This document shows positions 13,501 to 32,899 of a DNA stretch of 64,000 bases, piece by piece. Location: the NCBI GenBank assembly GCA_041674705.1, contig JBAYVF010000006.1, positions 23,241-87,240 of the forward strand, written 5' to 3'. The notes below the pieces were generated by a model, which ran no database searches, was not told the origin of the DNA, and saw nothing but the letters and a program-made list of their open reading frames with translations. The DNA comes from Candidatus Omnitrophota bacterium. Its GTDB lineage: Bacteria > Omnitrophota > Omnitrophia > Omnitrophales > Aquincolibacteriaceae. Both the position numbers and the translations under genes were made by a program. Position 1 is the stretch's first letter. The number at the start of each line of letters is the position of its first letter.

Positions 13501-13759
13501 GGATCTTCAGATCAATAAAAAAACAGTTTCCGCAATTGCGCAGGCCCCCGCGATCGAGGCCCCCGCTTCGGTTCAAGACCCGGTCCCCTCCGTGAGCGTT
13601 GTCAAAAAGAACACTTCCCTCAGCGCTGCCGGCGCGAACGAGCATCTGGCGAACATGATGGGCGATGCGCCCTTCTGCACGAATTGCGGCCATGTGACCG
13701 TGCGAAGCGGCTCCTGCTATAAGTGCCTGAATTGCGGCAATAGTATGGGATGCTCGTAA
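10586..13759 (+). CDS. nrdJ: adenosylcobalamin-dependent (class II) ribonucleotide reductase
   Basis: 1057 aa. Active-site block HASNPCSEYMFLDNSACNLASIN. C-terminal Cys cluster CTNCGH..GSCYKCLNCG. AAGGAGAG SD. Confidence 0.9.
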   Translation: MKTAKLPSVQEGQSLGRGLVFRRFFTKPDVHPLDEIKYVKRSSVITNPDGSVVFKMENVEVPESWSQLATDIVVSKYFRKAGVPETGSEVSARQVVSRIAHSIRVAGEKLGGYFKTPADAQVFEEEMLHLLIQQKCAFNSPVWFNCGMDLYGIKGSGGNYYWDPVTDTIQQSTDSYSNPQCSACFIQSVDDNLMSIFDLIKNEARLFKFGSGTGTNFSKLRGRQEKLSSGGTSSGLMSFLEVLDRGAGATKSGGTTRRAAKMCCLDLDHPEIMDFINWKVREEKKVAALIAAGYSSDFNGEAYKTVGGQNSNNSVRISDEFMRAYLNDGKWQTRFRTTGDVCETFQAKDMMDQIAFAAWACADPGVQFDTTINDWHTCANTDRIHASNPCSEYMFLDNSACNLASINVMKYLKADGTFDVDGFRHTTRVFITAMDILVDYASYPTEQIAGNSHVYRPLGIGYANLGSLLMVNGIPYDSAEASAICSALTAILTGHAYRTSAEIAASKNPFSDYKKNESSMLRVIEKHRAAAHKIPAEHCWQDILVAAHEDWEDAFEIGKLYGYRNAQVSVIAPTGTIGLLMDCDTTGIEPDFALVKFKKLAGGGYFKIINQGVPAALHKLGYSESEIQNIIEYIQGTSRLEGTPWINRATLAAKGFTSPELDKIDSMLPSVFDLSFAFTKWTLGEDTLKRLGFKAEDYNHLRFNVLEALGFSKAEIEEANGVVCGMMTIEGAPLLKPEHLPVFDCANRCGKHGKRFIEPMTHVRMMAAAQPFISGAISKTVNLPHESTVEDIEKIYVESWKMGLKAVALYRDGSKLSQPLNTKSGDSASDKKTEKKNEIQTAHPLVLQRKRLPKKRAGITVESRVGGQKIYLRTGEYPDGTIGEIFVDMHKEGAAFRSMMNCFAIAVSLGLQYGVPLDEFVNVFTFTRFEPQGLVDHPNIKLSTSIVDYLFRVLGMEYLGMTEFVQIPPKPEDLQINKKTVSAIAQAPAIEAPASVQDPVPSVSVVKKNTSLSAAGANEHLANMMGDAPFCTNCGHVTVRSGSCYKCLNCGNSMGCS

Positions 13760-13761
13760 GG

Positions 13762-13828
13762 CGATAAGGCGTACGGAGTACGGCGAAAACATAAAAAGCA
13801 TGACGCCGTACGCCTTCCGCCGTACGGA
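13762..13828. repeat. word-repeat palindromic element, GTACGGCG family (terminator position after nrdJ)
   Basis: aaggcgtacggagtacggcg - 18 nt - cgccgtacgccttccgccgtacgg. Confidence 0.7.
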
Positions 13829-13870
13829 TGCTGGCTCTTTAAGTGAAAATGAAGTAATATTTTACCCACC

Positions 13871-15643
13871 ATGACCTCCCACGAACCCATTGAAGCGACC
13901 GAGAAACTTTTTACACGCACCCGCTCGCGGTCTTTTCGAGGATGGATCCGCTTTGGGGTTTACTTCCTGATCATCGGCGTTTTCGCCCTCCTTTTGGGAA
14001 CGCACAAGCTGGATCGTCTCGAAGCTCTCGTTCGCGACAGTTTCTTAAAACAGGTTACCTGGGGGCAAGCCCATCCGGGGATTGTCCTGATCGAAATCCC
14101 GGAAACGGCTTTAGCGGAGATAGGTCCCTGGCCGTGGCCCCGAAGTTATCACGCGATTATGGCGCGCCTTTTAAGCGAATGGAAGGCGGCCGCAGTGGTT
14201 CTTGATCTCGACCTGTCCGAACCGACCGATCCCAAGAACGATCAGGATCTGGCGCAATCTCTTGGAAAGGTTGAAATCCCTTTTTATCTTCCGGTGGAGC
14301 TGAAACCCCAACAAGAGAAAAAATTCTGGGTGCATGGGATGCCCGTCGTGCTGGAGAGCGGCGAAGGCAAGAGAAGCTGGATCCATCCTTTGCCAGAGTT
14401 TGAGAAAGAAGCCCGGGGCGTCGGTCATAGTTATCTCGCTTCGGACCCCGACGGCCTTCTGAGAAGATTCGATCCCTTCATCACAGAGGGAAAAGAAAGC
14501 CATCTTTTTCTTCCGCTTCGCGTGGCGTTCGACCAAATGAAAAAACCCATCCCTTCGCCCCAAGAGTGGGAGAGGCTCGAAGATTTTCAGGGGAAGATTC
14601 TGATCCCCTGGAGCGAGGCGTGGGACCGCGGATTCACGCGTTACAATTACGCGGACCTGATTCATAGTTTTTATGCGATCCAGAAAGGGATGCGGCCCGT
14701 CATCGACCCCGGCATGGTTGCCGGAAAGATCTGCCTGGTGGGGCCCGTTGCGCCCGGGGCAACGGATCTTAAAGTCACACCTCTTAGCAGTGCGTATGCA
14801 AGGATCGGTGTTTACGCTCAGGTTTTGAATGCGGCGTTGACCAGCAACTGGGTGCGGCCCGTGTCGTTCCTGGGAAACATCCTTTGCCTTTTAGGGTGCG
14901 GAGTTTTGGCGATGACCTTATTTGTCGCGCTGAGCGGAGCGTGGTCGCTTGTGGCAGGGCTTTTACTTGTCGTCGGATGGTTCGCGTTCTGCTTCACGGT
15001 TTTCGCAAAGTGGCATTTAGGGTTCTACGTGGTCACTCCGGCCCTGCTTATGTTCTGTCTTTTCATTTTTACAGCGATCTATGCCCAGGCCACCGCGATG
15101 CGTGAAAAGTCGCATCTCTTTCACCTCGCCACGCGGGACGGACTGACCGAGCTTTATGTGATCCGTCATTTTCGTCTGATCATGAACCAGATCGTGCGTG
15201 AAGCAAGTTCCCGAAAACAGCCCTTGTCGGTCATCTTGCTCGATATCGACAACTTTAAAAAGATCAACGATACCTACGGGCATCCCGCAGGGGATATGGT
15301 GCTTAAAAAAACGGCGGCCATTATCCTTGCTTTTATCCGGAAGCGCCGGCCTTTTCGGGAGATCGATTTCGCGGCGCGCTACGGCGGTGAGGAATTCATC
15401 ATCATGCTCCGGAAAGCCGGCCTCCAGGAGGCCGCCGAGGTTGCGGCCGAACGCATCCGGAAAAAGATCGAAGAAACAAAGTTTGAGTGGGAAGGAAAAG
15501 CGATCCGGGTCACGGTGAGTTTGGGGGTCGCGGTTCGTCATGCGGGGGAAAACGTTCCTGACCCGATGGTCCATCGGGCCGATGCCGCCCTGTATAAAGC
15601 CAAAGAAGCCGGAAAAAATCGCGTTTGGAGTGAAGGCCGGTAG
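13871..15643 (+). CDS. CHASE2 sensor domain-containing diguanylate cyclase
   Basis: N-terminal TM, then IVLIEIPETALAEIGPWPWPRSYHA (CHASE2), three TM helices, then a GGDEF domain with RYGGEEF. An RxxD I-site (REID) sits at the canonical spacing. Confidence 0.85.
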   Translation: MTSHEPIEATEKLFTRTRSRSFRGWIRFGVYFLIIGVFALLLGTHKLDRLEALVRDSFLKQVTWGQAHPGIVLIEIPETALAEIGPWPWPRSYHAIMARLLSEWKAAAVVLDLDLSEPTDPKNDQDLAQSLGKVEIPFYLPVELKPQQEKKFWVHGMPVVLESGEGKRSWIHPLPEFEKEARGVGHSYLASDPDGLLRRFDPFITEGKESHLFLPLRVAFDQMKKPIPSPQEWERLEDFQGKILIPWSEAWDRGFTRYNYADLIHSFYAIQKGMRPVIDPGMVAGKICLVGPVAPGATDLKVTPLSSAYARIGVYAQVLNAALTSNWVRPVSFLGNILCLLGCGVLAMTLFVALSGAWSLVAGLLLVVGWFAFCFTVFAKWHLGFYVVTPALLMFCLFIFTAIYAQATAMREKSHLFHLATRDGLTELYVIRHFRLIMNQIVREASSRKQPLSVILLDIDNFKKINDTYGHPAGDMVLKKTAAIILAFIRKRRPFREIDFAARYGGEEFIIMLRKAGLQEAAEVAAERIRKKIEETKFEWEGKAIRVTVSLGVAVRHAGENVPDPMVHRADAALYKAKEAGKNRVWSEGR

Positions 15644-15706
15644 CTCTTCTCGCGTCTTGACCTATCCCAAGGAAAACAATACACTTTCACTTCTCGGACG
15701 CTGGGT

Positions 15707-15757
15707 GAAGGATGGAGGAGGGTGAAAAGTCAGGCACCATCCGCCATCCGTCTTCCG
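15707..15757. repeat. palindromic element, GGATGG family
   Basis: gaaggatggaggagggtg - loop - caccatccgccatccgtcttc. It shares stem words with 51145-51222 and 28565-28650. Confidence 0.7.
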
Positions 15758-15846
15758 CAATCCTGTTTTACGTGGAGGGATGGCAGAGTCATTCGCGGTT
15801 TCGCGGCGAATGACTTCGAGGAGTAAAGCGACGAGAGGTCTTCAGA

Positions 15847-16110
15847 ATGGAACAACGTTGGTCTCTTTATATTCTTGAGTGTCGCACGAAAGATTTGTAT
15901 GTGGGCATTGCTCAGGATGTGCAGAAAAGACTGGAGTTGCACAATAAGGGGCGTGCATGCCGGTACACTAAATTTCGAGGACCTGTGACGTTAGTTCATG
16001 AAGAATACTGCGGTGGTTACGCTGAAGCACGAAGACGGGAAAGAGAAGTCAAAAAGTTTTCTAGGATCAAGAAGTTAGCTTTAAGAGACCTCTCGTCACC
16101 AAAGACGTGA
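15847..16110 (+). CDS. GIY-YIG nuclease family protein (UPF0213-like, 87 aa)
   Basis: WSLYILECRTKDLYVGIAQDVQKRLELHNKG...YTKFRGPVTLVHEE.....A.RRERE.K pattern. Confidence 0.8.
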   Translation: MEQRWSLYILECRTKDLYVGIAQDVQKRLELHNKGRACRYTKFRGPVTLVHEEYCGGYAEARRREREVKKFSRIKKLALRDLSSPKT

Positions 16111-16144
16111 CTCGAGGTCCCAAAAATTATAAAACAAATTTTTG

Positions 16145-16230
16145 GGAGGGATGGCAGAGTGGTCGAATGCGGCGGTCTCGCCACCGCCTGCGAAGCGGCG
16201 GGGTCCCGCCTCTTTTTAGGCGGGAAAAAC
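16145..16230 (+). pseudogene. tRNA-Ser-like 5' fragment followed by a hairpin (non-functional tRNA remnant)
   Basis: The first ~36 nt (GGAGGGATGGCAGAGTGGTCGAATGCGGCGGTCTCG) are near-identical to the tRNA-Ser(CGA) 115 nt downstream. There is no 7-nt anticodon loop, T-arm or 3' acceptor. It ends in cccgcc-tcttttta-ggcggg. Confidence 0.5.
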
Positions 16231-16259
16231 TAGCATTTTTTGATCGGCCGTTCGTTTAG

Positions 16260-16346
16260 GGAGAGGTGGCAGAGTGGTCGAATGCGGCAGTCTCGAAAAC
16301 TGTTAATCGCGCAAGCGGTTCGGGAGTTCGAATCTCCCCCTCTCCG
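16260..16346 (+). tRNA. tRNA-Ser(CGA)
   Basis: Hand-folded cloverleaf: acceptor GGAGAGG/CCTCTCC, anticodon arm GCAGT-CTCGAAA-ACTGT, long variable arm, T-arm GGGAG-TTCGAAT-CTCCC. No encoded CCA. Confidence 0.9.
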
Positions 16347-16383
16347 TTTTGCTATGATTTTTAAATAAAAAAAGGAATAGAAA

Positions 16384-18078
16384 TTGGAATATCTGATCTT
16401 CGCCAGGAAATTCAGGCCGCAGACGTTTGAAGAGATCGTGGGGCAGGAGACCATCACCACGACCTTGAAGAACGCCATCCGCCAGGAACGCGTTCCGCAA
16501 AGCTTTCTTTTTTCCGGGCCTCGAGGTGTGGGAAAAACCTCAACCGCGCGTATTCTCGCCAAGGCTCTGAATTGTAAAGAAGGTCCTACCGAAAAACCCT
16601 GTGGCAAATGTATTTCCTGTAAAGAGATCGAGCAGGGGAATTCCATGGATGTGCTCGAAGTGGACGGTGCGTCGAACCGCGGCATTGAAGAGATCCGAAC
16701 ACTTCGCGAGAATGTAAAATTCAAACCTTCTTCGGGCCGCTACAAGATCTACATCATTGACGAAGTCCATTCCTTGACCGGCGATGCTTTTAATGCCCTC
16801 TTAAAGACCCTCGAAGAGCCGCCGGCGCATGTGAAATTTATTTTCGCCACGACGGAAGCCCACAAGGTGCCTCTCACGATCCTGTCGCGCTGTCAGCGGC
16901 TTCAATTCAAAAGGATCTCGGTCCCTGAAGCGGTTGAAAAACTTGAGAAGATCGCGCAGAAAGAAAAACTGAAGTGCGAGAAGAACGTGCTTTTCATGAT
17001 CGCGAAGGCTACGGAAGGCGCGCTTCGCGACGCGGAAAGTCTTTTAGACCAACTGGCGAGTTTTTCCGAAGGGAAGATCAAAGAAGAAGACGTCTTAACG
17101 CTTCTCGGTCTTGCGCCGGAAGCGATGTATGTTTCGGTTCTTGTGGCGATCCGCGAGAAAAAAGGGGATGAGATCTTTGGTCTCGTGAAAAAGCTTTATG
17201 AGGAAGGCGCCGACCTCGCGCAATTCGCGAAGGGGCTCTTCGAAGTTTTCCGTCATCTCTTGGTCTTGAAGACCGCGGTCAAAGCGGAGGCGTTGATCGA
17301 AGCGAGCTCCGACATGATCGTGAAGTTGAAGAAGCTGACGACCGATTTCCCGCAGGGCGAGTTGCTTTTGGCTCTTTCAATCCTTCAAAACTTGCAGATC
17401 CAGCTGCGCCGTCCGGTGGCCTCGCCCAAACTGCTCCTGGAGGCCGCGCTCCTCAAGCTTGTTTATATGGATGGCATGAAATCCGTCGACAGTCTTATCC
17501 AGAACGCTTCTTTAGCGTCGAGGGGGAGTTCCGCAGCTCCGGCCATGGAAAAAAAAACACTAAAACCGGTCACGGCCGCTAGCAGAGTTGAAATTCCTCA
17601 AAAGGGGACAGGCACCGTTTCTTCGGGGACTGGCTCCTTTTCCGCAGGAAAAGGTGCCTGCCCCCCTCAAAAAGAAACGGAGCCTGTCCCCCCAGAAGGC
17701 CTGACGCTCAATGATGTCGAAAAGGTATGGCCTCAAGTGATCGAGCTTGTAAAAGCCAAGCGCATGTCCTTGAGTCTTTATCTTGCCGAAGCCGAGCCGG
17801 CAGAAGTAGAAGGTTCGGTGATCGTCCTGGGGCTTCCCTCCGAATTCCGTTTTCATAAAGAGACGCTCGAAAAAGATCTGAACAAGCAGGTTATCGAAGA
17901 CGCGTTCGCGCAAGCCTTGGCTGTCAAGGTCCGGGTCCAATGTGTTGTGACCGAACGCGACGGGACGACTCAGGAAGCGGCCGAGGAAAGAGCCTCGGCT
18001 CAAGACGAAGGCGTGCCTGATATTGTTTCAAAGGCCCTTGAAATTTTCGACGGTTCCAAAGTTATCCGCAAAGATTGA
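16384..18078 (+). CDS. dnaX: DNA polymerase III subunit gamma/tau
   Basis: TTG start. FRPQTFEEIVGQ, P-loop GPRGVGKTSTARILAK, Zn module CGKCISC, DEVH. 564 aa. Confidence 0.9.
   Translation: MEYLIFARKFRPQTFEEIVGQETITTTLKNAIRQERVPQSFLFSGPRGVGKTSTARILAKALNCKEGPTEKPCGKCISCKEIEQGNSMDVLEVDGASNRGIEEIRTLRENVKFKPSSGRYKIYIIDEVHSLTGDAFNALLKTLEEPPAHVKFIFATTEAHKVPLTILSRCQRLQFKRISVPEAVEKLEKIAQKEKLKCEKNVLFMIAKATEGALRDAESLLDQLASFSEGKIKEEDVLTLLGLAPEAMYVSVLVAIREKKGDEIFGLVKKLYEEGADLAQFAKGLFEVFRHLLVLKTAVKAEALIEASSDMIVKLKKLTTDFPQGELLLALSILQNLQIQLRRPVASPKLLLEAALLKLVYMDGMKSVDSLIQNASLASRGSSAAPAMEKKTLKPVTAASRVEIPQKGTGTVSSGTGSFSAGKGACPPQKETEPVPPEGLTLNDVEKVWPQVIELVKAKRMSLSLYLAEAEPAEVEGSVIVLGLPSEFRFHKETLEKDLNKQVIEDAFAQALAVKVRVQCVVTERDGTTQEAAEERASAQDEGVPDIVSKALEIFDGSKVIRKD
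17549..17557 (+). promoter_or_regulatory. A9 slippery run in dnaX (candidate recoding / transcriptional slippage site)
   Basis: GAA AAA AAA ACA at codons 389-392. The -1 frame stops at 17580-17582 and the +1 frame stops at 17561-17563. Confidence 0.45.
17604..17691. repeat. 88-nt imperfect palindrome inside dnaX coding sequence (in frame)
   Basis: ggggacaggcaccgtttctt..ggactggctccttttcc / ggaaaaggtgcctgcccc..aagaaacggagcctgtcccc. Encodes GTGTVSSGTGSFSAGKGACPPQKETEPVP in the tau linker. Confidence 0.75.
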
Positions 18079-18096
18079 TCCATCGGGAGCCCAGCC

Positions 18097-18696
18097 ATGA
18101 AAGCCTATTCGGAAATAATGACGAGATTGGTTGAGGCGCTCTCCAAACTCCCAGGTATCGGCCGGCGTTCGGCCGAGCGCATGGTTTTCCACCTCCTGAA
18201 AACAAAAAAAGAAGATGCGCTCACGCTCGGAGAGCTCATCAAGCAGCTTCGCGAGAGCGTGGTGTTTTGCAGCGTTTGCCATAATTTCTCGGATCAAAAA
18301 CTTTGCCATGTTTGTTCGGACCCGGGCCGCGATCAGGGGCTTATTTGCGTCGTCGAAGATCCCAAGGACGTTGTGGCGATCGAAAAGACCGGAAGCCATC
18401 GCGGGGTCTATCACGTACTGCTGGGGGCGCTATCGCCGCTGGACGGGATCGGGCCGGATCAGATCTGCATTCAGGATCTTCTGGAACGCGTGAAGCAGAA
18501 AAAAGTCCGGGAAGTCATTCTCGCGACCAACCCCAACACCGAAGGCGATACGACCGCGCTTTATCTCGCGAAAGTTTTGACACCTTCCAAAGTCAAAGTG
18601 ACGCGCCTGGCGCGCGGCATCCCGGTCGGCAGTTATATTGAATACACGGACCAGGCCACGCTCGCCCGCGCTTTTTCAGGCAGACATCTCGCATGA
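18097..18696 (+). CDS. recR: recombination protein RecR
   Basis: LPGIGRRSAERM helix-hairpin-helix, Zn finger CSVCHNFSDQKLCHVC, Toprim VVEDPKD...ATNPNTEGD. Confidence 0.95.
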   Translation: MKAYSEIMTRLVEALSKLPGIGRRSAERMVFHLLKTKKEDALTLGELIKQLRESVVFCSVCHNFSDQKLCHVCSDPGRDQGLICVVEDPKDVVAIEKTGSHRGVYHVLLGALSPLDGIGPDQICIQDLLERVKQKKVREVILATNPNTEGDTTALYLAKVLTPSKVKVTRLARGIPVGSYIEYTDQATLARAFSGRHLA

Positions 18697-19502
18697 TCTC
18701 TTCTTTTAAGGGGATGACGGCGCTTGTCACCGGTGCTTCTTCCGGGATCGGCAAGGCCCTGGCGCGCGAACTCGCGGGACAAGGCGCGAACCTGATCCTC
18801 GTCTCGCGTAATGCCCAACGCCTGGAACAAGAAGCAGAAGATCTCAGGATCCGTTTTGGTGTGAACGTCCATGTTTTCCCTGAGGATCTGGAGCGTTTGG
18901 AAGAGCGGCTGGAGCTTTTTGCATGGATCCAGAAGATGGGTCTCATCGTGGACGTTCTTGTGAATAATGCCGGTCTTGCGCATTACGGTCCGTTCGGAGA
19001 AACAAATTTTGAGGATACGGCAGCAATGCTGGACCTGAACATTCACGCGCTCACGCATTTGACGAGGCTTTTTCTCCCAGGAATGCTTGAAAGAAAAACA
19101 GGTGGAGTTTTGAATGTGGCTTCCACCGCCGGCTTTCAACCCCTTCCTTATCTTTCGGTGTATGCGGCGACCAAGGCTTTTGTGCTCAATTTTTCCGAGG
19201 CGTTAGGGGAAGAATGCCGAGGCCGTGGCGTTCGCGTTTTTTGCCTCTGTCCGGGGAATACACTCACACGTTTTCATCAGACCGCCGGGATCGATAAGAA
19301 AAGAATGTTCTTCAGCGCTTCAGCCTCGGATGTCGCGCGTTTTGCGCTCAGGAAATTTTTGAAGACGAACCAGCCTTCGGCGATCTTTGGTTTTTGGAAT
19401 AAACTCATGATCTATGCGGAGAGATTAAGCCCGAGACGGCTGACCGTGTTCGTGACGGGGATGATGTATCGATCGAACGGGACCGGAGACCCGAGACCAT
19501 AG
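18693..19502 (+). CDS. SDR family oxidoreductase
   Basis: TGASSGIGKALA and the YAATKAF catalytic motif. ATGA overlap with recR. Confidence 0.85.
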   Translation: MISSFKGMTALVTGASSGIGKALARELAGQGANLILVSRNAQRLEQEAEDLRIRFGVNVHVFPEDLERLEERLELFAWIQKMGLIVDVLVNNAGLAHYGPFGETNFEDTAAMLDLNIHALTHLTRLFLPGMLERKTGGVLNVASTAGFQPLPYLSVYAATKAFVLNFSEALGEECRGRGVRVFCLCPGNTLTRFHQTAGIDKKRMFFSASASDVARFALRKFLKTNQPSAIFGFWNKLMIYAERLSPRRLTVFVTGMMYRSNGTGDPRP

Positions 19503-19556
19503 ACCAACGCACCACGTTTTAAAGTCTCTGGTCTCTCGTCTCAAGTCTTCGGTCTG
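19480..19556. repeat. word-repeat palindrome (GAGACC words) spanning the SDR stop codon
   Basis: ggaccggagacccgagaccatagacc ... gtctctggtctctcgtctcaagtcttcggtctg. The left arm encodes the last residues GTGDPRP. Confidence 0.6.
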
Positions 19557-19576
19557 TGCTGTTAAGCTAAAGAGAG

Positions 19577-19605
19577 TTGCTAGCGCCGCTTTTCTTGATT
19601 AGAAT
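19577..19605 (+). promoter_or_regulatory. candidate promoter for tRNA-Gly (TTGCTA-17-TAGAAT)
   Basis: Spacing is 17 nt. The -10 ends 25 nt before the mature tRNA 5' end. Confidence 0.4.
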
Positions 19606-19630
19606 GACTTCCGTTTCGCGCATCAAACAC

Positions 19631-19701
19631 GCGGGCATAGCATAATGGTAATGTCCTAGCCTTCCAAGCTAGTCATGCGGGTTCGATTCCCGCTGCCCGC
19701 T
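19631..19701 (+). tRNA. tRNA-Gly(TCC)
   Basis: Hand-folded: acceptor GCGGGCA/TGCCCGC, anticodon arm CTAGC-CTTCCAA-GCTAG, T-arm GCGGG-TTCGATT-CCCGC. Confidence 0.9.
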
Positions 19702-19891
19702 GATTTCCAATAAATCAGCACGGTGCCGTCACGTCTTAAGGATAGACGTGTACGGCAACCGCGCTCTTTCTGGGTGGCTGGAAGAAAGCGCCGACCGCAG
19801 ATCGAAACTACAAGTTTCGATCTGTTTGCGGCACCAACGCACAAGCGTTGGTGTTCCCGCCGTCTTCAAAAACACACCTCTTGCGAATTGG

Positions 19892-20791
19892 ATGCGAATG
19901 ATTCAAAAAATTTTATTCCTCGTCGAATACGCCATCTTCAGGGCCCTGGCATTTCTTCTCCGTCTCATTCCTCTTCGAATAAGTTACAAAACGGCTGATG
20001 TCTTGGGGGTGTTCGTTGTCCGGATCCTGGGGATTCGGCGTGAGACCATGCTGAAAAATCTTCGCCTGGCATTCGGGAAGGAAAAGGATGAAGCCGAACT
20101 TCTCCGGATCGCCGAGGAGTCGATGGCGAACCTCGGCAAACTCGTTTTCGAATTCATCCGAACACCGGAAGCTTCCGCCTACCCCGAGCGGTATATGGAA
20201 CCGCCAGACGTATCGCCGCTGATGGAAGCTGTGAAGAAAAAAGGCGGTTTTATCGCGATTGTTTCGCATTTCGGAAATTGGGAGTGGTTGGCAATTCCCA
20301 TCCAAAAAGACGGCCTTCATGTGCATGCCGTGGGCCGTCCCCTCAAAAATCCTTATCTTTACCGTTATGTCCGGGAAATTCGCGAAGCGGCGAACCTGAC
20401 CAATATCGAAAAGTCAGGCGCGGTGCGGTCCTCTCTCGAGGTGCTTAAAGAGCGGGGGATTCTGGCGGTGCTGATCGATCAACATGAAAGCCGGGGATCG
20501 ATGTGGGTGAATTTTTTTGGCCGCAAAGCCGCGACGAGCACTTTGCCGGCAATGCTTGCCCTTAAATATGAATATCCGGTGCTTCCCGCGTTCTTTTATC
20601 GCGATGAGAGCGGTTGCTCGAAAATTAAATACGGACCACTTTTCCCCCTGATCCGGACCGGAGATCTTCAAGCTGATTTATTGGCTAATACCCAGCAGTA
20701 TGTAACTAAGATCGAGGAAGAGATCCGAAAACGGCCCGGCGACTGGCTTTGGGCCCATCGGAGATGGCGCGCCCCGGAAGTAAAGGTTTAA
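19892..20791 (+). CDS. lysophospholipid/lipid A biosynthesis acyltransferase (LpxL/HtrB family)
   Basis: N-terminal TM, SHFGNWEW acyltransferase motif, LIDQH block. ATG 19892 is preferred because the track start 19748 lies in a hairpin array. Confidence 0.7.
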   Translation: MRMIQKILFLVEYAIFRALAFLLRLIPLRISYKTADVLGVFVVRILGIRRETMLKNLRLAFGKEKDEAELLRIAEESMANLGKLVFEFIRTPEASAYPERYMEPPDVSPLMEAVKKKGGFIAIVSHFGNWEWLAIPIQKDGLHVHAVGRPLKNPYLYRYVREIREAANLTNIEKSGAVRSSLEVLKERGILAVLIDQHESRGSMWVNFFGRKAATSTLPAMLALKYEYPVLPAFFYRDESGCSKIKYGPLFPLIRTGDLQADLLANTQQYVTKIEEEIRKRPGDWLWAHRRWRAPEVKV

Positions 20792-23700
20792 GCAGCGGAG
20801 GAGATGACGACGTAATTCTGGACCAAGGCTTCGACGAAAGCACGAACCTCGGAACGAAAACGTCCGGTCTGGTCATAAAGAAAGCCGTTCTTCATTTGCA
20901 GGTCTTCAGGCCGATTGACAAGTAGCGCCAGAACGATGCCATCCATGCCGTCTAGGGCAAAACATTCTTGAAGATGTGGAACAATCCTCGGCTCCGCCCT
21001 GCCTAATCTTGCTTTGAATGCTCCTACCGTATCTCGTTCCATATCCGAGAAACCAAAGACCGGGATCTTTCCAGACCTCGCCATTTCAGGCAACCGGATA
21101 TCAACGGTAGCAACCGACCGTAACGCCACCACGCGATTACTATATTGTCCGTGAACAACATCCGGGATCACTAGTCGGATCTCCGAACGTCTTGTCCCCG
21201 CCAAGCAAAGAAGTTTTTTAAAATCCGTCGCCGTCATTAAATCTATCGTCGTCTGCTCAATTACAAGCACCGCCTTGTTCATGATAGGCGCTATCGGTTG
21301 AACTCTCGCCTCAGAACGAACCGGTGCGTCTTTGGCCATCGCCGCGTCTCCACTCGCTACCGCCTGATCAGTCATAGTTTCCGAATAAATACCATAAACC
21401 ATCTCGAGTTGAGCCAAACCAGTCTGAAGCCCCTTCTTATATGCCATGAGCGTTAGCAACGCATCCGCTCGATCAATAGGATTCGCTCTAAGACGATTTT
21501 CAAGACCGCCAACATCCTGTGCTTGAAGCCACCGAATATCATCGATGCCTTTTTTAATCTCAACCAACACTTCCTTTATTAATGAGACAACGTCCGTACG
21601 CGACATTTTCTTCCAATCCTGTCTATATTGATTGTCAAAAGGAATCTTTTTTGAAAAAATATCACGCTGAATGCCTTGATTCCGCTTATTAATCATTTCA
21701 AGTCGATTGTTAATTTCGGCTATTTCAGCCACCTCTTCTTCCTGTAAATAGACCTCCGCTGAACTCCATAATCCGAGGGCCTGACGAAGCGTATAATTTA
21801 ATTTGTCGCCGAATAAAAGAGTTAGCGCCTCGGCCATCTGATATAAATGTTCATCGGACAGCTCCCCACGTTTAAGCGTTAAGGCAGCTTTACGCAACAG
21901 AGAACCCGCCATCAAAAATCTCTCCGCTCCTTGCCCTCGATAAAAGGCGGATTCCCGCTCAAGGAACTCATCAATCGTCAGCTTCCCTTCGCGGAAAGAC
22001 TGTTCGCTCTGATCAGGTTCTTTGCCTGTTGTCACATGGAATCGTAAAAGAGTCCCTTCTGTCGTCAATGCAGCAAGGCGCGTCTGCGTCTCCGCCTCGG
22101 AGATACCCAGGAGACTGGCCACTTCTTCTACCTTGAATCCACCGACGATGCTATTGATGGGATAATGGGAAAGACTCGCCACCGCAGCATCTTCGCTCCG
22201 CATCTCGGAGCGGACCGTTATGTCTTTAGCCATCGCGCGGTCGGCCTCGGCCGCCTTCATCTCCCTGCCGTCCGCCGTGAAAATCTCTTTCTCTTCGCCT
22301 GTATCGGGGATACGGGGAAATTCAACGGGGGCGGTCATCAAATCAGGCCCATGCCCCAGCCAGGACAAACTCATTTTACCGTCAGACAATATCTTGACGC
22401 TTCGGATCTTCGTTGGCTCTTTCTTGTCCGTGTAAGGATTAACGAATAATATTTTCACGCCTGACGGAAGTTTGATGAGCGTGCGCTGCACGCCAAAGAT
22501 ATCTTCGTTCTCGGCCAATACTTCTCCTTTGGCGCTCAATCCATCGAGGAGCTGCATCCATTCTTGCCGTGAAAAGGCATGGCTTTTCGTGAACTCAGAC
22601 ACGCTGTCGATCGTCTCATAACTGGCCGTGGGGTACATCGGGGTAAGTTTTATCACATCAATTTTATTGCTGAAACTTTCAGCAAACCTTTCGAGATCTG
22701 AAACATTGTCGATCCCGCTCTTGAACGCGATCAAATTAACTCTCAAAGTCTTGCCCCTGGACATTAGAAAACGATTGATCTCCTCTATTTCCCCTATCGT
22801 GAGCGTCGATGTTTCCATAATGGCGTCATTTCGTTTCTTGTCATAATGATGATAGGAGATATTAACCGATGTGATCGAGGAATTCCCGACAAGCTCCAGA
22901 ATATTTTTATCTCTCAAGGGCGTTCCGTTCGTCGTAACAGTGACCTCGTCTAATTGATCCTTGACCTTATCCAATTCCCCCAACACTTCTCCTAAATGCC
23001 GTGCGAGCAAAGGTTCCCCCCCCAGCAACACGACATCTTTCACATGATAAGCGCTCATGGCTTTGCTAAGCTTTTGTGGAAAATTACGCGCCACAGCCTC
23101 ACCGCTATGTTGCGACCCTGTTTTATTAATACAAAAAGCGCAGTTACCGTTACAGAGGTCGGTCATGACAATACTCAGACTGGTTTCATCGGCTATCTGA
23201 TAGAGGCCCTCGCCGATACGAACAGGAGTCAAAGAATCATCCATTAAACGCATTTCTCGAATGTAAGGCACACTGCTTTTTGTTTGGTTGTGCCCAGGGG
23301 CCTCCGCCGCGTCGGGAGGCATCTGATCTGAAATGGGAGAAAGAGGGCTCTGTTCCCAATTTTCCTGACTTTCTATTCGAGGTAAATCTGTAAACTTATT
23401 ATCGGGTCTCGGGCCTTGCTCTATTAAATCCACACTATCTAACCCCAGGCCGTCCACCCGAGCAAATTCTTTAGAGCTATCAATACTCGAAAGCATTTCT
23501 GCACCTCTAGGATTTTTGTCATTTGGCTCCTTCTCAGCGGCAGGTTCTTGTTTCAACCGCATTTCGGAGCGCTTGTCTAGAGCGGTTCGATTTGGCTTAT
23601 TCCGTTGCGAGTCTCTAAGGCTACGCGCCTTTCCCGGCCGAATGGCAACCCATAAATCGGAGGTTTCAATAAACCGGCGCCTCAAGAACTCAACATCACA

Positions 23701-26700
23701 ACCAAGCCCTAAAAACATGTGCGAAAGACGGGCTAATAGAGAAAAACCTTCCTGATTAGGGAAATGGCACCCTTTTTCTGAATAATAATAACTTAAATAA
23801 TGGTTCAAAATCAGCCACTGCGGCGTCACTTCCGCCATCAAGCAGATCCAATCTCGTAAAACCCTCCCTTCGGATACAAGTCTCTTCAAAACCGACAGAC
23901 CCTTCTCGGCACGCCGCCATGCCTTGACCGCAACAGAAGCGGGCAACCGATCACTGTGATCAAAAATTTCAGCCACCTCTTTCAGGGGAAGAATTTCGCC
24001 CAAAAACATGTCGTCCAAGGCATGATTGCCAACCACTAGATGCGGGTTACGCGGCAAAGATTCCATTCCTTCCCGTAAAGTCTTTTGGATGGAAACAACT
24101 TTCACTCCGGGGACAAGTCTTTGATAGGAATCCACAGCTTTTTTGATCACTTTCGCAGGTTCAAGAACATAAACGGTACCAAGAAAACCGTATTTTTTGA
24201 GCCCCCACGCAATTTGTGAACCCGAACCCGGCGCTACTTCGACAACAACCCCATCTTTAGGCAACTGAATTTTTTTAAAAATATCTTGCCAAATAAGGCC
24301 CATGAACTGGTCCCATGTCATTCGCGCTGGGTCAAATTGACTCAAATCAAAGGACATGCCAGGGGATCCCGCCTTGCCATTCGTATCCATGGATGAAACT
24401 TGTCGCATTTGTTGTAATCGCTCAAGGCCTTTTATAACCGAAGGGTCGTCTTTCATAAAAGGAGCAAAAACAGGCCGTGAAGGTCCAAGCGATTGTAGTC
24501 TGAATTTTCGGTTCTTGAATAACAATGTCGGAACCAAATTTTCAAGAAGCTTCTGGTTATCGAAAGCAGGGCTGATCACCCACATTTCATCATCGTGCCT
24601 TTCGATCGCACAGTCATATTTTTTCCCGTTCAGCCTTATGGACCAAGATCCTTGTTCTTTTGGCATTTCCTCTTGATCAAAAAAGGCGGTAAAAAACCGG
24701 AAACTGCCGTCCTTAGAAAGCAATTTTCCAGAATAGCCATTAACATAAAGTTCCATGTCGGCAAGATAATAATTATCAAAAATACGGGAAGGAACGCGCC
24801 TACTGGCTTGCACGATCTTATCGATCAACAGCGAAAATCGTTCTGCCTTGATTTTCCTGCCTTGATACATTTCCACGAGATTCTGTTTGATCCGGCGTCC
24901 GAAGAGAGGCGACAAATAGGAACGATCCTCATTCACAATATAGGCCTTCATTTCCGCAGAATCCTCTAAAGGCGCGAAAACCGATCCTCGAATCTTTGCA
25001 AAAAGAGAATCATACGCAAAGATGAAGAACAGTGCCCTTCGACAACAATCTTCAAGCATCCCATCGTCTTGAACCACATACCCGTGCTCTTCGACATAGC
25101 GCTTCATGAAATCCGGAATCGCGTCATTTTCCTTCCGTTCAGTTTCCGCATCGGGATTCAGCAACAGAAAAAACGCTTTTTCAATACTCCATTGAGGACT
25201 TCTTCGGAGAAGCGGGTAATACCGGAAGAAATTAGAAAAATCAAAGACGGCAAGCTCATCATGATCGGGAGCATGAATATCCCATGCATTGTAACGCGGG
25301 AGCATCATGCGTGACAGGGCCTGAAATTCATCGGCTAATATTTTTAGTTCTCTTTCGAACTGCTGGCCTACGGCGTCTTTAAATGGCGTGGACAATCCCA
25401 TGAGATCAAGGAACCTTGTTCGGATCTGCGACGCATAAGCCTCCTCCATGGCGTGTTTTAGATCTTTTAAAGACACCTTGCCGCGATTAACTTCGCTTTG
25501 CGCTAAACCTTCCAAAATCATTAATTGACCGTTCTGCTCTAATCCAAATAAATTGGTTGTATAGAATGTTTTTCCAACGACTTGAGGCGGACGGTGACGG
25601 ACAGAAAGGACCGTGTCATAATCAAGCATACGGCCTTCCACCGAGATATTGCCTGCCGACCATGCTCCGTGAAAGATCCTTTCAATAAACTTTTCAGCCT
25701 CCCCTTTTCCAAACATGGTTGCCACACGAAGCATTCTTTTTTTGTTAAGTGGCTCGTTTTTTTTAAATAAATGCGTCGGACGATCCAAGCTTCCATCATC
25801 CATACGAACTAAGAGAGCCGCTGCTTCCCTGGATCCCGGCCACGAAGGATTATCAAAAGTCTTTACCGCATCAATGATCCCGAGTACCGGCGCCGTACCA
25901 GTACGGAGGTCGTAGTGCAAGGAATTGGAAACGATGGCTTCCCATACTGCGGTCGGAAGATCAAGAAAGCCGTCCGAATGCCATTTATCTGACTCGTGAC
26001 TCACGAGAGCTGTTTTAACCCCTTTCACATTGAAACGAGAACCTATATAAAAAGCACGTCCTGAACCCAAGTTACCATTCGTCGCGATACCGGTCGGATC
26101 GAATTGATAATCCACAAAAACAGGCAAATACTTTTCAAGCTTAAGCCCATCTGAACCTTGACCGCGTTTAAGCGTGGCCACGGAAAATTGACGTTCTATA
26201 GCGTCCAACATATTTTTTGAATCCGTCCACGGCGGAAGAAACCGGCCCAGCATGGCGCGGTTTCCATAGATGCCCGCCATGGACTCTACCGGATCTTTAT
26301 AAGCAGTTTGTCGGATGAATGACGAACGGCCCAGACGATCCAAGGCCTGAGGTTCCTTACGCATCTCCTGTTCGAGAGAAAGAATCGGCCTTAAGCAAAA
26401 AGCCATCCACGAGTCACTCTCAAAACCCTCAGTTTCAACAATCATTTCGGATTCCAGATCCCTTGTATTTTTAGGCACCGAAGCAGAAATTTGCTCAAAA
26501 AGGTCTTTGGCCCTTCTGAAATCATCAGAAGAAATCCGGTCATTGCGAAGCAGAGCATCACGACTTGCTATGACAAAAGCTGGTGACGCTTTTATAAAAA
26601 AGCTCTTCCAGTCCAGCCCGCGAGAACTATCCTCCGATGACATCCTTGTGAATGCATTGACAATCACCCCATCCACAGGGTTTAAAAAGCCACTCCCTTG

Positions 26701-28887
26701 ATTGAATGCGTCCAGAAGGACAGGAATAATCTTGGCTCCAGGCAAAAGGTGACGGTATCTTTCTAAATTTCGAAGGACCGCTTTATTTCCACCTGTCAGC
26801 ATTAATGTGCCTTTAAATTTCCTGGAGGCTAGCACTTCAGGCACGGATGACGGTTCGGAGGATACAAATTCGATCAAAGATCCTTTTTCCGGAAATTGAT
26901 AACGGTCTAAAAGAAGTTGCCAAATCCGCTGGGCAGCCACACGGCGGTCCTTTTCAGGGATCTTTTCGAGCCTTGAATTTAAAGGAACTTCTTGGTCGTC
27001 GCGCGATTCGCTTCGGCGAGACATTACATTTTTTTTAAGGGAAAGATCCTGGGCATGAACTGATCCCATTTCGTCAATACCAGCAGCTTGCCTTCCATTC
27101 GTTTCCTGCATCTCGAAGCGAGTGGTTCGCTCATGATTTAAATCTCGCATTTCAGCTCTTCCAATCACACGATGGAGCGTTCCAAGATCGGCGTTGCGGT
27201 CTGCATACAGAGCATTGGCTACGGCCAAAACCTCCATGCGGCCTTCAGAGCGAGCAAAAATGCGCTCGGCCGGGACCATGGTTGCAGGGGCCAAAGGTTT
27301 TGTGGCAATTGCCCGCTCGAACGGAAAGTCACCGTCTGTCATAAGCTTTTTATAGAACGCTTCGTGACGAGGGCTGGGCTTGGTGATTCGCGGACTGACG
27401 ACGAGGTAACTGATCCCTTTGACTTCGAGGACGCGTTTGATGTTCTCCTTATGGAATCCTCCATATACCAAAATTGCCGGCTCGATGCCGGGCAATTTCG
27501 AACTCGAAGTTCGAAGCTCGAAGTTCGAAGTTTCGGCATTATCTTTGTTCTTTGCGTTTTGCTCTTTTCCCTTTTCAAGAAAATATTTATCCAACATCTC
27601 CGAAAGTGAATTGTCACGCTGATGGGCGATTTCGTAGAATTTAATCGCATCCTTGATGTTTTGCTCCCACATCCGGGAGAGGATAAGCGTCTTTGGCGAC
27701 TGGCTGAAAATAAACTTAGCGAAGGAATCCGTATCAAATGTTTTAAGGCTGTTTTTGACCGCCTCATATTCTTCTTGGGATACTTGAAGGTCGTTCAGAC
27801 GGTCGAGAAGGCTTAGGATTTTGTAATACTCAAGAAGCTGCTTATCTTCCGCCTTATGCAAGTAAGTTTCCGCGACCGCTTGCTCAAGTTTAATAAGCTC
27901 GCCGAAGATTTCACGGGCATCAATGTGTTTGGCTTTTTCGATGACAGCCGGATCATTCGAGCGAATGGCTTCAAGAATAAAGCTGAAAAGACCGTCAGCG
28001 TGGAGCGCAGAGCGTTTAACGCTTAGCTTTTTGTCGTTTCTGTCCCCTCTACGCTCTACGCTATCCGCTAGTGAAAATGTCCTTCCAAGATAAGTAAAAA
28101 GGTCGAGCTTCTTGGCATCGAACTGTTCCTTGATCTTGAGCCATTCCTTGAGCGCTTTTGGAAACCGGGCATCGGCAAGTGACTTTAATTCCTTTTCGAG
28201 CGCCTTGAGATCTTTGGTGATGACGTCTTTCTTTGCCGCAGAGAGACGGTATTGTCCGATGTTTTCTTTGTGGAGCTTTAGGGAATCAGCGCCAACGAGG
28301 TTGAAATCCTTTGTCCGGTTAATGTGGGCGTATTCCGCACCGCCTACGCGAAGATGGTCCATCAGGAAGTAAGAGACCTTTTCTTTGATCGTGAGGTCTT
28401 TGATGAACCCGAAATAGTTGTCCGTAGGCACCGGGCCTTCATAGCCCTCCTCGAAGACTGTCTTAATGCCGTCATGCGCGACTAGGTGGTTGATGATCTT
28501 GGCGATATTTTCCTGAGCTTCGAGCGAGTCATGGGCGTCTTGCAGAAAGACTATGGTCTTTCTGCCGGATATCGGATGAAGGATGGAGGATGGCGCCAAA
28601 CCTTTGGTTTTCAGTTCTTCGCCATCCGCCATCCGCTGCCCGCCATCCGGGGCAAAATAGACCTCGTCTATTTTGCCAAGTTCGGGAGGGATCCGGATCT
28701 TTACATCACGGACCAGGCGAGAAAGATCCTTGGATGGATCCCCTCCCTGAACATTGGCATTGACTGGTTGGGCGAATGCAGGGGGCACATAGTTGAGAAG
28801 GCCTGTAAACAGAAAAAGCGCCGCTGTGATAATGGCGACGCCTCTTTTGAATGGGTTTCTCCCGAAGGGAGTATTTTGTATTCTCAT
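20788..28887 (-). CDS. giant multidomain protein (2,699 aa): signal/anchor, unknown N-terminal region, SelO-like, methyltransferase-like, radical SAM, unknown C-terminal modules
   Basis: Single uninterrupted ORF. The motifs are quoted in the domain sub-features and findings. The stop overlaps the lpxL-like stop region by 4 nt (convergent genes). Confidence 0.85.
   Translation of the reverse strand: [2699 protein letters not shown]
22500..23190 (-). other. radical SAM core region of giant ORF (approx. aa 1900-2130)
   Basis: [19 protein letters not shown] (CxxxCxxC at 23131-23154), [29 protein letters not shown]. Confidence 0.7.
23730..24390 (-). other. class-I SAM methyltransferase-like Rossmann region of giant ORF (approx. 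aa 1500-1720)
   Basis: [14 protein letters not shown] (motif I-like), GTVYVLEP (acidic end of beta2), [11 protein letters not shown] (motif IV-like). Confidence 0.45.
25000..26400 (-). other. SelO/YdiU-like pseudokinase (AMPylase-fold) region of giant ORF (approx. aa 830-1295)
   Basis: [22 protein letters not shown] aligns with E. coli YdiU [42 protein letters not shown] aligns with [42 protein letters not shown] aligns with [21 protein letters not shown]. Confidence 0.6.
27485..27539. repeat. palindromic word-repeat (CGAAGTT words) in frame inside giant ORF
   Basis: atgccgggcaatttcgaactcgaagttcgaagctcgaagttcgaagtttcggcat. Encodes ..[18 protein letters not shown].. Confidence 0.65.
27998..28062. 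repeat. palindromic word-repeat (CTACGC words) in frame inside giant ORF
   Basis: gcgtggagcgcagagcg - 27 nt - cctctacgctctacgct (14/17 complementary by hand). Encodes ..[21 protein letters not shown].. Confidence 0.55.
28565..28650. repeat. GGATGG-family palindromic element in frame inside giant ORF
   Basis: ccggatatcggatgaaggatggaggatggcg - cctttggtttt.. - cgccatccgccatccgctgcccgccatccgg. Encodes ..[29 protein letters not shown].. Confidence 0.7.
28771..28887 (-). other. signal-peptide-like / N-terminal anchor segment of giant ORF (aa 1-39)
   Basis: [16 protein letters not shown] (basic), [15 protein letters not shown] (hydrophobic), then [10 protein letters not shown] (AxA-type site). Confidence 0.6.
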
Positions 28888-29263: not shown

Positions 29264-30508
29264 ATGTCACAGGATTTGCTCGCTTCACTGGAATATATCG
29301 AAAAAGAGAAGGGGATCACCAAAGAGGTCCTCTTGGATGCGCTCCGTCATGCCCTGATTTCCGCCTGCCGCAAAGGTTCTCCGGAAAAAGGAGACGCCTT
29401 TGACGTTCAAATTGATCCCAAGACCTTTCGCATCACCATGTTTCTGGACGGGAAAGAGATCAATGATCCCCGTTTCGGACGTATTGCCGCGCAAACCGCC
29501 AAACAAGTCATCATTCAGAAAATCCGCGAAGCCGAACGCGAATCCATTTTTGAAGAATACAGCCACAAGCAGGGCGACATCGTTTCCGGAAGCGTTCATC
29601 GGATCGAATCGAAAGCAATCATTGTGGACTTCGGAAAAACCGAAGGCATCTTGCCCGCGCGCGAACAATCACCGCTCGACAGTTTCCGTCAGGGGAATGT
29701 GGTGCGCGCCTACGTGATGGAAGTGAAAAAAACATCCAAAGGGCCAGAGGTCATTTTGTCGAGAACCCATCCGGACCTTGTGACGCAATTTTTTGAAATG
29801 GAAGTGCCGGAAATTCACGACGGGCTCGTAAAGGTTAAGGCCGTCGCGCGTGAGGCCGGATCCCGCACCAAGATCGCCGTAACTTCGTCCGATGAAAAGA
29901 TCGATTGCGTCGGCTCCTGCGTGGGCGTTCGCGGGCAGCGCGTCAAAAGCATTGTGCGTGAGCTTGGCGGTGAAAAGATCGATATTATCCGTTATAGCGA
30001 CGACATCGAGACCTACATTAAAAACGCAATGGCGCCGGCCGAGCTGAAAAAGATCACGCTTAATCCGGACCGGCAAAGCGCCGAGATCCTGGTTGAAGAC
30101 GATCAGTTGTCGCTTGCCATCGGGAAAAAGGGCCAGAATGTGCGTCTTGCGTCCAAACTGATCGGCTGGGAACTCGACGTGCGTAGCGCCACGCAAAAGA
30201 TCCCTCTCGGTTCGCTGGATGGCATCGGAGAAAAGACAGAGCAGATCCTTAAGGAAGCCGGGATACAGGGGCTTCGGGAACTCCTTCGAAAAACAGTGGA
30301 AGAGCTTTCCGAGATCCCGGGCATCGGTCCCAAGACCGCCGAGAAGATCCTCGCGTCGGCTAAAGAAGCCGCGACAAAAAAAGGCGAAGCGGGTAAAATC
30401 ATCGAGAAAGCGGTTCCGGCGGAAACGCCCGAGGCGAATAACGCCGCGGAAGAAATAGAAAAGAAGGCTCCTGAGGCTGAAAAGGGGCAGGAAGAGGCGG
30501 GTGCGTAA
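29264..30508 (+). CDS. nusA: transcription termination/antitermination factor NusA
   Basis: MSQDLLASLEYIEKEKGI N-terminus, S1 and two KH regions (LAIGKKGQNVRLASKL), C-terminal HhH. Confidence 0.95.
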   Translation: MSQDLLASLEYIEKEKGITKEVLLDALRHALISACRKGSPEKGDAFDVQIDPKTFRITMFLDGKEINDPRFGRIAAQTAKQVIIQKIREAERESIFEEYSHKQGDIVSGSVHRIESKAIIVDFGKTEGILPAREQSPLDSFRQGNVVRAYVMEVKKTSKGPEVILSRTHPDLVTQFFEMEVPEIHDGLVKVKAVAREAGSRTKIAVTSSDEKIDCVGSCVGVRGQRVKSIVRELGGEKIDIIRYSDDIETYIKNAMAPAELKKITLNPDRQSAEILVEDDQLSLAIGKKGQNVRLASKLIGWELDVRSATQKIPLGSLDGIGEKTEQILKEAGIQGLRELLRKTVEELSEIPGIGPKTAEKILASAKEAATKKGEAGKIIEKAVPAETPEANNAAEEIEKKAPEAEKGQEEAGA

Positions 30509-30509
30509 C

Positions 30510-32717: not shown

Positions 32718-32735
32718 AAAGGCAAGCCTTTTAAA

Positions 32736-32862
32736 CTCCAATCACCAAGAAACAAGAACCAAACAAACTCCAACAACCAAAATCCAAACGTTAACAAAAA
32801 GAAATTTTTGTTTTTGATTATTGGTATTTGGTCATTGCTTGGTTATTGGATCTTGGAATTTT
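32736..32862. repeat. long imperfect palindrome of CCAA/TTGG words between infB and rbfA
   Basis: ctccaatcaccaagaaacaagaaccaaac... / ...ggtcattgcttggttattggatcttggaattttg. Confidence 0.55.
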
Positions 32863-32899
32863 GTATTTCGACAAAGAAATTTTCTTTGAACGCCAGGGG

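Follow-up and report, generated by a model that had tools for sequence, protein, structure and literature searches.

What does a short peptide do that recurs at the seams of a giant bacterial protein? The question is raised by a 64,000-nucleotide stretch of DNA from a Candidatus Omnitrophota bacterium (contig JBAYVF010000006.1, positions 23,241 to 87,240; hereafter the window), which contains a 2699-residue open reading frame (ORF) whose product carries copies of the pentapeptide R-[S>A>P]-E-[M/V/L/A/I]-R between its units. In the sequence examined, the motif is confined to one Omnitrophota protein family. It is under selection as an amino-acid sequence, with nearly absolute specificity, and a genome-encoded factor that acts on the protein reads it. 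Its most likely role is to mark where an exported polyprotein is processed site-specifically, a reading that we consider about as probable as its negation.

The motif is far more frequent than chance would allow. The giant ORF contains seven RSE.R pentapeptides where 0.069 are expected (Poisson P=1.3e-12; maximum of 2 in 2000 shuffles), and nine R[SA]E.R when two RAE.R copies are included, against 0.14 expected (at most 3 in 2000 shuffles; Poisson P 1e-12 to 1e-13). In 120 homologues there are 604 RSE.R against 9.2 expected, and 71 further, independently found members contain 270 RSE[VLMAI]R against 1.8 expected. A preliminary description of this locus had named a chance-level frequency, or absence of the motif from orthologues, as grounds for dismissing it; the frequency proves far above chance, and orthologues carry the motif at their junctions.

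The motif logo is limited to five residues, with small residues at positions -1 and +1, a mildly acidic stretch downstream, and flanks that are otherwise near-uninformative. Position 1 is enriched 185-fold for Arg and just 3.7-fold for Lys, position 2 accepts Ser, then Ala (28-fold), then Thr, position 3 is Glu only and never Asp, position 4 is Met, Val, Leu, Ala, or Ile and never aromatic, charged, or Pro, and position 5 is Arg, with His enriched 10-fold and Lys absent. RAE.R is the second commonest form of the motif, with position 2 occupied by Ser in 819 copies and by Ala in 206. In some lineages Ser is replaced throughout, as in P0132 (RAEVR, 15 copies), P0137 (RAELR, 8 copies), and P0145 (RPEAR, 7 copies), and because whole lineages carry Ala or Pro instead, the Ser hydroxyl is dispensable.

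The nucleotide signal ends at the 15 coding bases of the motif, and the flanks have none. In the window and 80 further family loci (L001-L080), 81% of copies have CGY (CGC or CGT) at the first Arg and 89% have TCN at Ser; the invariant Ser and Arg residues of the conserved N-terminal domain of the family (the N-domain) show the same TCN/CGN bias, and the bias at the motif is probably a feature of constrained sites. The copies in the giant ORF draw on both Ser and both Arg codon families. A single genome encodes the same peptide using five Leu and four Ala codons and mixes its Ser and Arg codons. It follows that the peptide is what selection acts on, since the signal stops at the coding bases, the control sites share the bias, and codons vary within a genome. 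As a separate observation, CGY usage at the first Arg (81%) compares with 43-59% at control sites, an excess that is not fully explained.

In 1.25 Mb of Omnitrophota loci, family ORFs have 1.58 motifs per 1000 residues and other ORFs 0.14. The non-family carriers are same-strand ORFs that are cut by locus edges or lie just downstream of a family N-terminus, and the complete large non-family ORFs in these loci have no motif. A search using the giant protein minus its N-domain returned only the giant protein itself. Elsewhere in the window, a single FRSEIR at 56923-56937 (-), in an unrelated 186-residue ORF (56779-57339), is probably a chance match. Two very large ORFs that are edge-cut upstream of family genes, L049 1-9267 (+) and L029 2-9667 (+) (3089 and 3222 residues), have 0 and 2 motifs, respectively; they could represent giant proteins of another kind or belong to the family and use a variant motif.

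The layout of the giant protein, in window coordinates, is as follows:

20788-28887 (-): giant ORF, 2699 residues, a multi-unit Omnitrophota-family protein that carries the junction motif
28771-28887 (-): residues 1-39, putative N-terminal signal peptide or N-in signal anchor, read from sequence as MRIQNTPFGRNPFKRG, a hydrophobic stretch, and AFA|QP
27298-28704 (-): residues ~62-530, conserved N-domain, from alignment, an AlphaFold2 (AF2) model, and profile search
27238-27252 (-): residues 546-550, motif copy 1, RSEGR, directly after the N-domain and with an atypical Gly at position 4
27145-27159 (-): residues 577-581, motif copy 2, RAEMR, an Ala variant
27001-27015 (-): residues 625-629, motif copy 3, RSESR
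23572-27000 (-): residues 630-1772, cargo region with no Pfam match, part of which has BLAST high-scoring segment pairs (HSPs) to P0029 residues 884-1669
23557-23571 (-): residues 1773-1777, motif copy 4, RSEMR, the KRSEMR of the preliminary description
22213-23556 (-): residues 1778-2225, radical SAM unit, with a low-complexity leader and then a MoaA-like radical SAM domain
22198-22236 (-): residues 2218-2230, AMAKDITVRSEMR, with core motif copy 5 at 22198-22212
21343-22197 (-): residues 2231-2515, shuffled unit, 73% identical to P0001 residues ~1086-1366, with faint Pfam matches only
21304-21342 (-): residues 2516-2528, AMAKDAPVRSEAR, with core motif copy 6 at 21304-21318, a predicted disordered linker
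20791-21303 (-): residues 2529-2699, conserved C-terminal cap domain (C-cap) with a Rossmann-like alpha/beta fold
21175-21189 (-): motif-like RSEIR in the C-cap, residue 2567
20986-21000 (-): motif-like RAEPR in the C-cap, residue 2630
20842-20856 (-): motif-like RSEVR in the C-cap, residue 2678

The two 13-residue near-repeats that first drew attention to the motif, AMAKDAPVRSEAR and AMAKDITVRSEMR, are thus both present on the minus strand within this ORF, together with the shorter forms KRSEMR (23557-23574), GRAEMR (residues 576-581), and SRRSESR (residues 623-629). Their coordinates had been given correctly, but the peptides are read on the minus strand; plus-strand translation at the same positions yields peptides unrelated to the motif and was rejected. 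Additional copies are ARSEGR (residues 545-550) and the three pentapeptides in the C-cap, which were rejected as true motif sites because they are not conserved columns in the alignment and lie within folded elements of the model. The only recognizable Pfam domain in the giant ORF (Pfam and NCBIfam scans of the whole protein) is radical SAM, with a PF04055 match over residues 1906-2024 (E=1e-12) and the CxxxCxxC cluster motif present as CNGNCAFC. The radical SAM unit (residues 1890-2200) is MoaA-like, yet it falls far below the NCBIfam equivalog cut-offs. Between motif copy 4 and this domain lies a low-complexity stretch of ~110 residues rich in Pro, Glu, Ser, and Asp (residues ~1778-1890; window 23220-23556 (-)), a leader that far exceeds a typical linker (~40 residues).

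Homologues with richer annotation locate the motif relative to folded units. In seven Pfam-rich members, none of 59 motifs falls inside a Pfam domain, with domains making up 24.7% of the sequence (P=5e-8), and many lie 20-30 residues upstream of the next domain. Natural multi-domain enzymes are not split by motifs, including CN_hydrolase with NAD_synthase (NadE-type), B12-binding with radical SAM, and the N- and C-terminal domains of dehydroquinate synthase, and because such enzymes stay whole, the motif separates protein-sized units rather than domains. Homologue-coverage profiles could not define module boundaries because the middle cargo is too heterogeneous; unit boundaries were instead taken from clustering of HSP ends and from Pfam coordinates. 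Family-internal HSP ends lie within 15 residues of a motif in 19.6% of cases, compared with 5.2+/-0.7% for shuffled positions. Hydrophobic content falls over ~20 residues on either side of the motif. Spacing between motifs is bimodal, at 10-75 residues (several copies per linker) and 200-750 residues, and the first motif of family members has a median position of residue 527. Placement at inter-module junctions, proposed previously for the giant protein, is borne out there at two points. The unit between the two 13-mers (residues 2226-2528) recurs in P0001 (residues 1081-1379, 73% identity), where it is flanked by RSEMR and RSEIR, and the homology starts at the first motif and stops at the second. 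The second 13-mer lies in a segment with a predicted local distance difference test (pLDDT) score <50, ~10 residues ahead of a confidently modeled domain (construct residues 1-22 have pLDDT<50).

The core of the motif is the pentapeptide. The AMAKD form of 13 residues is found in both near-repeats, as described, and does not generalize: it occurs at ~5 independent sites among ~870 motif copies, and was rejected as a general extension. It is a rare, lineage-specific tail that belongs to the unit between the two 13-mers, with one additional local copy. The suggested resemblance of the two 13-mers at the DNA level holds weakly, in that 28 of 39 nucleotides match, and fails in that the Arg and Ser codon families differ. 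Similarly, the idea of a duplicated linker cassette fits the AMAKD tail locally, and does not hold in general, with flanks that lack conserved amino-acid or nucleotide sequence and with varied codons. A different cassette is seen in P0116, where a ~50-residue linker between two motifs (R[AS]ELRREANA ... VSKT.xRSELR) is present twice, at residues 532-585 and 1497-1550, so some multi-motif linkers are duplicated as units. If motifs are cut, short peptides would be released from these cassettes.

The fourth residue of the motif is tuned genome by genome. Paralogues from the same metagenome-assembled genome (MAG) are alike at this position (cosine similarity 0.61, compared with 0.37 between MAGs), a value reached in 0 of 2000 permutations. 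In JAUYMS01, all 22 copies across four paralogues are RSELR, with five Leu codons in use, N-domains that are 44-49% identical, and unrelated cargo; in CAYGIT01, RSEAR dominates. These paralogues have closer relatives among proteins of other genomes, where other variants are in use, than among their genome-mates, as in L041, with 61-63% identity to M- or L-type proteins and 49-52% to genome-mates. Because nearest relatives in other genomes use other variants, the preference tracks the genome and not the protein lineage, which points to a shared, co-evolving reader factor and argues against a passive linker element. The earlier suggestion of a specific recognition element at junctions is therefore upheld by a motif that is family-wide, strict, excluded from domains, and tuned per genome. 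No neighboring gene family recurs across the 80 loci, and a dedicated neighboring protease or partner gene was rejected for that reason.

The proteins that carry the motif share little else. Family members are Candidatus Omnitrophota proteins of 1.5-7.7 thousand amino acids (kAA) in which only the N-terminal ~550 residues are common and the enzyme cargo differs widely, with 2-9 distinct Pfams per homologue and domains that include NUDIX, phosphoenolpyruvate-utilizing, and radical SAM enzymes, epimerases, methyltransferases, kinases, HD proteins, glycosyltransferases, RNA-modifying enzymes, and sigma-factor regions. An exhaustive N-domain profile search, with clustering at 50% identity, yielded 8588 cluster representatives, of which 3147 reach E<=1e-30, and in these the N-domain is always N-terminal. 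All 80 genomic loci come from Omnitrophota MAGs, with several paralogues per genome. The family N-terminus has an n-region with a median net charge of +3, an uncharged hydrophobic stretch of ~24 residues, and a small-x-small sequence in 87% of members. By classical rules it would fit a Sec signal peptide or an N-in anchor, either of which would place the remaining chain outside the cytoplasm. At the other end, the C-cap, a Rossmann-like domain of ~170 residues that ends ...Y-V-V-I-S-x-A-A, occupies the exact C-terminus of 22 of the 120 homologues, including the giant protein studied here, so this sub-clade has fixed N- and C-caps around shuffled cargo. Its model has a pLDDT of 83, and no specific structural match to it was found in the PDB.

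We propose that the R-[S>A>P]-E-[M/V/L/A/I]-R copies form a short linear recognition motif in short disordered linkers between enzyme units, within giant proteins that would each consist of a Sec-type signal or anchor, an N-domain of ~480 residues, and a variable string of enzymes. The reader factor is most likely a site-specific endopeptidase, which would cut the exported polyprotein at the motifs, freeing single enzymes. It would be either the N-domain, which is weakly TIKI-like, or an unlinked protease that serves the whole genome, and the latter fits the covariation data at least as well. A still broader version, which we advance tentatively and think rather doubtful, takes RSExR to be the cleavage code of Sec-exported cellular polyproteins across the phylum. 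In this version, cytoplasmic-type enzymes (radical SAM, NAD synthetase, nucleotide kinase, RNA-modifying, and sugar-nucleotide enzymes) would leave the Omnitrophota cell as strings, and a co-evolving per-genome protease, possibly the N-domain, would cut the strings outside the cell or inside a partner cell. The genomes of Omnitrophota are small, and these bacteria presumably depend on hosts or prey.

As the only constant partner of the motif, the N-domain is a candidate for the protease. Its AF2 model (pLDDT 72.9) has an alpha/beta core with a helical insertion of ~250 residues, and D117-x-H119, E147 (H119+28), and H479, none of which varies across 17 diverse members, are placed where its predicted strands end C-terminally. 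The TIKI superfamily has a core in which a central parallel beta-sheet is flanked by helices, and a 2His/2Glu motif that comprises E3900/H3902/E3930/H4030 in RRSP and includes H85/E113 in Bcr135 (PMC6254334). Its members include sequence-specific endopeptidases (Tiki and RRSP), esterases, and inactive binding proteins (PMC6254334). The N-domain resembles the TIKI/TraB/ChaN/erythromycin-esterase group in its predicted alpha/beta core with a helical insertion and in its D-x-H, Glu 28 residues later, and distal His, mirroring the 2His/2Glu pattern by spacing, without superposition. It differs in that its insertion is much larger, the first acidic residue is Asp instead of Glu, and no significant sequence or profile match links the two. 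The model weakly suggests a candidate TIKI/erythromycin-esterase-like hydrolase.

Several observations count against cleavage, or against the N-domain as the enzyme responsible. The best Foldseek matches of the N-domain in the PDB, to the erythromycin esterase EreC, Bcr135, and ChaN, all from the TIKI superfamily, are weak, with E values of only 0.1-1; there is no Pfam match to PF01963, PF04187, or PF05139, except for PF04187 in one of 17 members at E=0.3; the N-domain profile found nothing relevant among PDB sequences; and hhalign of the N-domain against Escherichia coli YbaP (TraB family) gave a probability of 0.2%. The TIKI superfamily also counts esterases and inactive binders among its members. 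No docking into the N-domain is predicted for the linker that follows it, which has pLDDT <50. Unusual N-domain residues common to genome-mates amount to 0 columns compared with 0.04 for random sets, or 2 compared with 0.53 (p~0.1), and specificity-determining positions in the N-domain are therefore not supported as the source of the genome preference. The test for motif-rich proteins that lack the N-domain covers 1.25 Mb of loci. Cleavage itself is inferred, and would be analogous to that of viral polyproteins or MARTX toxins. Finally, tandem copies 10-75 residues apart make up ~20% of spacings and are as easily understood as multivalent docking.

Docking is the foremost competitor to cleavage. 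The motif would then be an uncut docking or "sticker" motif, and its partner could be a hub protein, part of the surface or of the secretion apparatus, or a neighboring molecule's N-domain; binding would tether or organize the enzyme string. Repeated linker motifs have such a role in scaffold proteins such as CsoS2, CcmM, and EPYC1. The evidence for a specific, co-evolving reader factor applies equally to docking, and linkers with 2-4 motifs 10-75 residues apart would provide multivalency. The motif also starts a helix in folded contexts, both in the C-cap (RSEVRAFVEAL) and after N-domains (RSELRAIASSVEALG), and a defined bound conformation is therefore possible. However, it is not obvious why a tether would be required at each junction of protein-sized units, the one that immediately follows the N-domain and the one that immediately precedes the C-cap among them; no constant candidate binding domain exists besides the N-domain, and the adjacent linker is not predicted to dock onto it. 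Of the two functions suggested in the preliminary description, we hold belief and doubt in balance for a protease site and regard a docking tag as possible but rather unlikely. On the conformation of the motif, we note that the first copy after the N-domain often stands in the helix-like context RSE[LV]RA[IL]xSSVEALG (residues ~540-560 of the giant protein, and many other members), which resembles the start of the last C-cap helix (RSEVRAFVEAL), and in its bound state the motif may have a helical N-terminal conformation.

Two other readings at the protein level fare considerably worse than cleavage or docking. A post-translational modification site, with phosphorylation or nucleotidylation of Ser or modification of Arg regulating the linkers, is consistent with a strict motif in surface-exposed, disordered segments and with the kinase domains (PF00069) that some members carry, but whole lineages do without the Ser hydroxyl by using Ala or Pro (overall, 206 copies with Ala and 819 with Ser) and Arg modification has no specific support, which makes this reading very unlikely. 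We consider it similarly improbable that the motif lacks a dedicated reader factor and plays a passive structural part, capping helices or acting as a charged stiffener of the linkers. The motif does open helices in two folded contexts, and linkers are often compositionally biased; yet Lys for Arg and Asp for Glu, which a passive element would tolerate, are essentially absent, and neither a single hydrophobic residue per genome across old paralogues nor confinement to one protein family would be expected. A DNA- or RNA-level element, of which the peptide is a by-product, could be a site at which recombination shuffles modules, the scar of such an event, or a linker cassette that was duplicated recently. 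It would suit the heavy shuffling of cargo among close relatives, the codon bias, and the 28 of 39 matching nucleotides of the 13-mers, but is largely refuted and barely credible given a nucleotide signal confined to 15 coding bases between empty flanks, the same bias at N-domain control sites, and the use of five Leu codons and both Ser and both Arg codon families in one genome.

How, then, would cleavage at these motifs compare with known systems? A short motif at unit junctions that is absent within units (0 of 59) is the general pattern of a polyprotein. As in the viral polyproteins of potyviruses (NIa/TEV protease) and picornaviruses (3C protease), a short, strict peptide stands at the unit junctions of one ORF, and its specificity would co-evolve with that of a protease. 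In contrast to those systems, the genes here lie on bacterial chromosomes amid housekeeping genes, each genome has many paralogues, linkers are often multi-site, and no chymotrypsin-like or other viral protease is recognizable in the giant protein. MARTX toxins rely on a cysteine protease domain (C80) with cleavage after Leu, have glycine-rich repeat regions, and are exported by type I secretion. The family resembles them in the putative export of large proteins whose conserved ends enclose a variable, shuffled array, and in short linker motifs that would correspond to the processing sites of the toxins, with a built-in protease as a MARTX feature; it differs in its Sec-like N-terminus, Arg-based motif, and metabolic-type enzyme cargo, and Pfam and NCBIfam scans of the whole giant protein found neither C80 nor RTX elements. 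Among the MARTX effectors, RRSP is itself a sequence-specific endopeptidase with the TIKI fold (PMC6254334).

The closest counterparts are found within the phylum. Omnitrophota giant genes of >20 kb have been described (West-Roberts et al, 2023; doi 10.1101/2023.11.21.568195), with missing cleavage points named as an open problem that blocks structural analysis, and long "multi-enzyme metabolic" proteins of at least 10 kAA have been reported (Nielsen & Lui, 2026; doi 10.64898/2026.06.07.730766). The family described here shares with these proteins the phylum, a Pfam repertoire (radical SAM, ROK, response regulator, methyltransferase, HAD, HD, NUDIX, GT1, and starch synthase), and the usual N-terminal signal peptide or transmembrane segment, and the question of cleavage is open there too. 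It differs in size, at 1.5-7.7 kAA, and in being defined by the N-domain and RSExR. Homologues are tiled with enzyme Pfams behind a signal-like N-terminus, and the giant protein of the window, at 2.7 kAA, has one Pfam and is under 10 kAA. The architecture corresponds to the "multi-enzyme metabolic" class at smaller size. The Omnitrophota literature searched mentions neither a junction motif nor a shared N-domain, and searches of the literature for the pentapeptide strings returned only noise.

Whether Omnitrophota giant proteins act as single chains or as cut pieces is an explicitly open question, on which the motif bears in several ways. It is strict and easily searched, marks unit boundaries across >8500 protein clusters, and supplies testable candidate sites for processing or docking. 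It also offers an objective way to split the proteins into units for structure prediction and annotation and, through covariation per genome, a handle on the reader factor, with 176 complete genomes available. If cleavage occurs, these would be cellular, chromosomal, exported multi-enzyme polyproteins, which is unusual for bacteria, the motif would be the first cleavage map for Omnitrophota giant proteins, and the finding would bear on the way in which these episymbionts or predators affect their partners.

The start of the giant gene has been called in two ways. An identical gene call of 2699 residues (P0193) is present in JGI/ENA/Logan. The NCBI entry MFA7255098.1 ("radical SAM protein", 2149 residues) corresponds only to residues 551-2699 and starts at M551, the residue directly after the first motif, RSEGR 546-550 (residues 1-551 occupy window 27235-28887 (-)). 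It therefore does without the first 550 residues, which hold the signal sequence and the entire conserved N-domain. Because the same fusion is found in thousands of homologues, the short call looks like a start-site error. The gene lies in a housekeeping neighborhood that suggests no mobile element. On one side (10586-20791) are genes for a class II ribonucleotide reductase, a CHASE2-GGDEF diguanylate cyclase, dnaX, recR, a short-chain dehydrogenase/reductase, and lpxL, and on the other (29264-35080) are nusA, infB, truB, and ribF. The giant gene is transcribed convergently with or opposite to these neighboring housekeeping genes.

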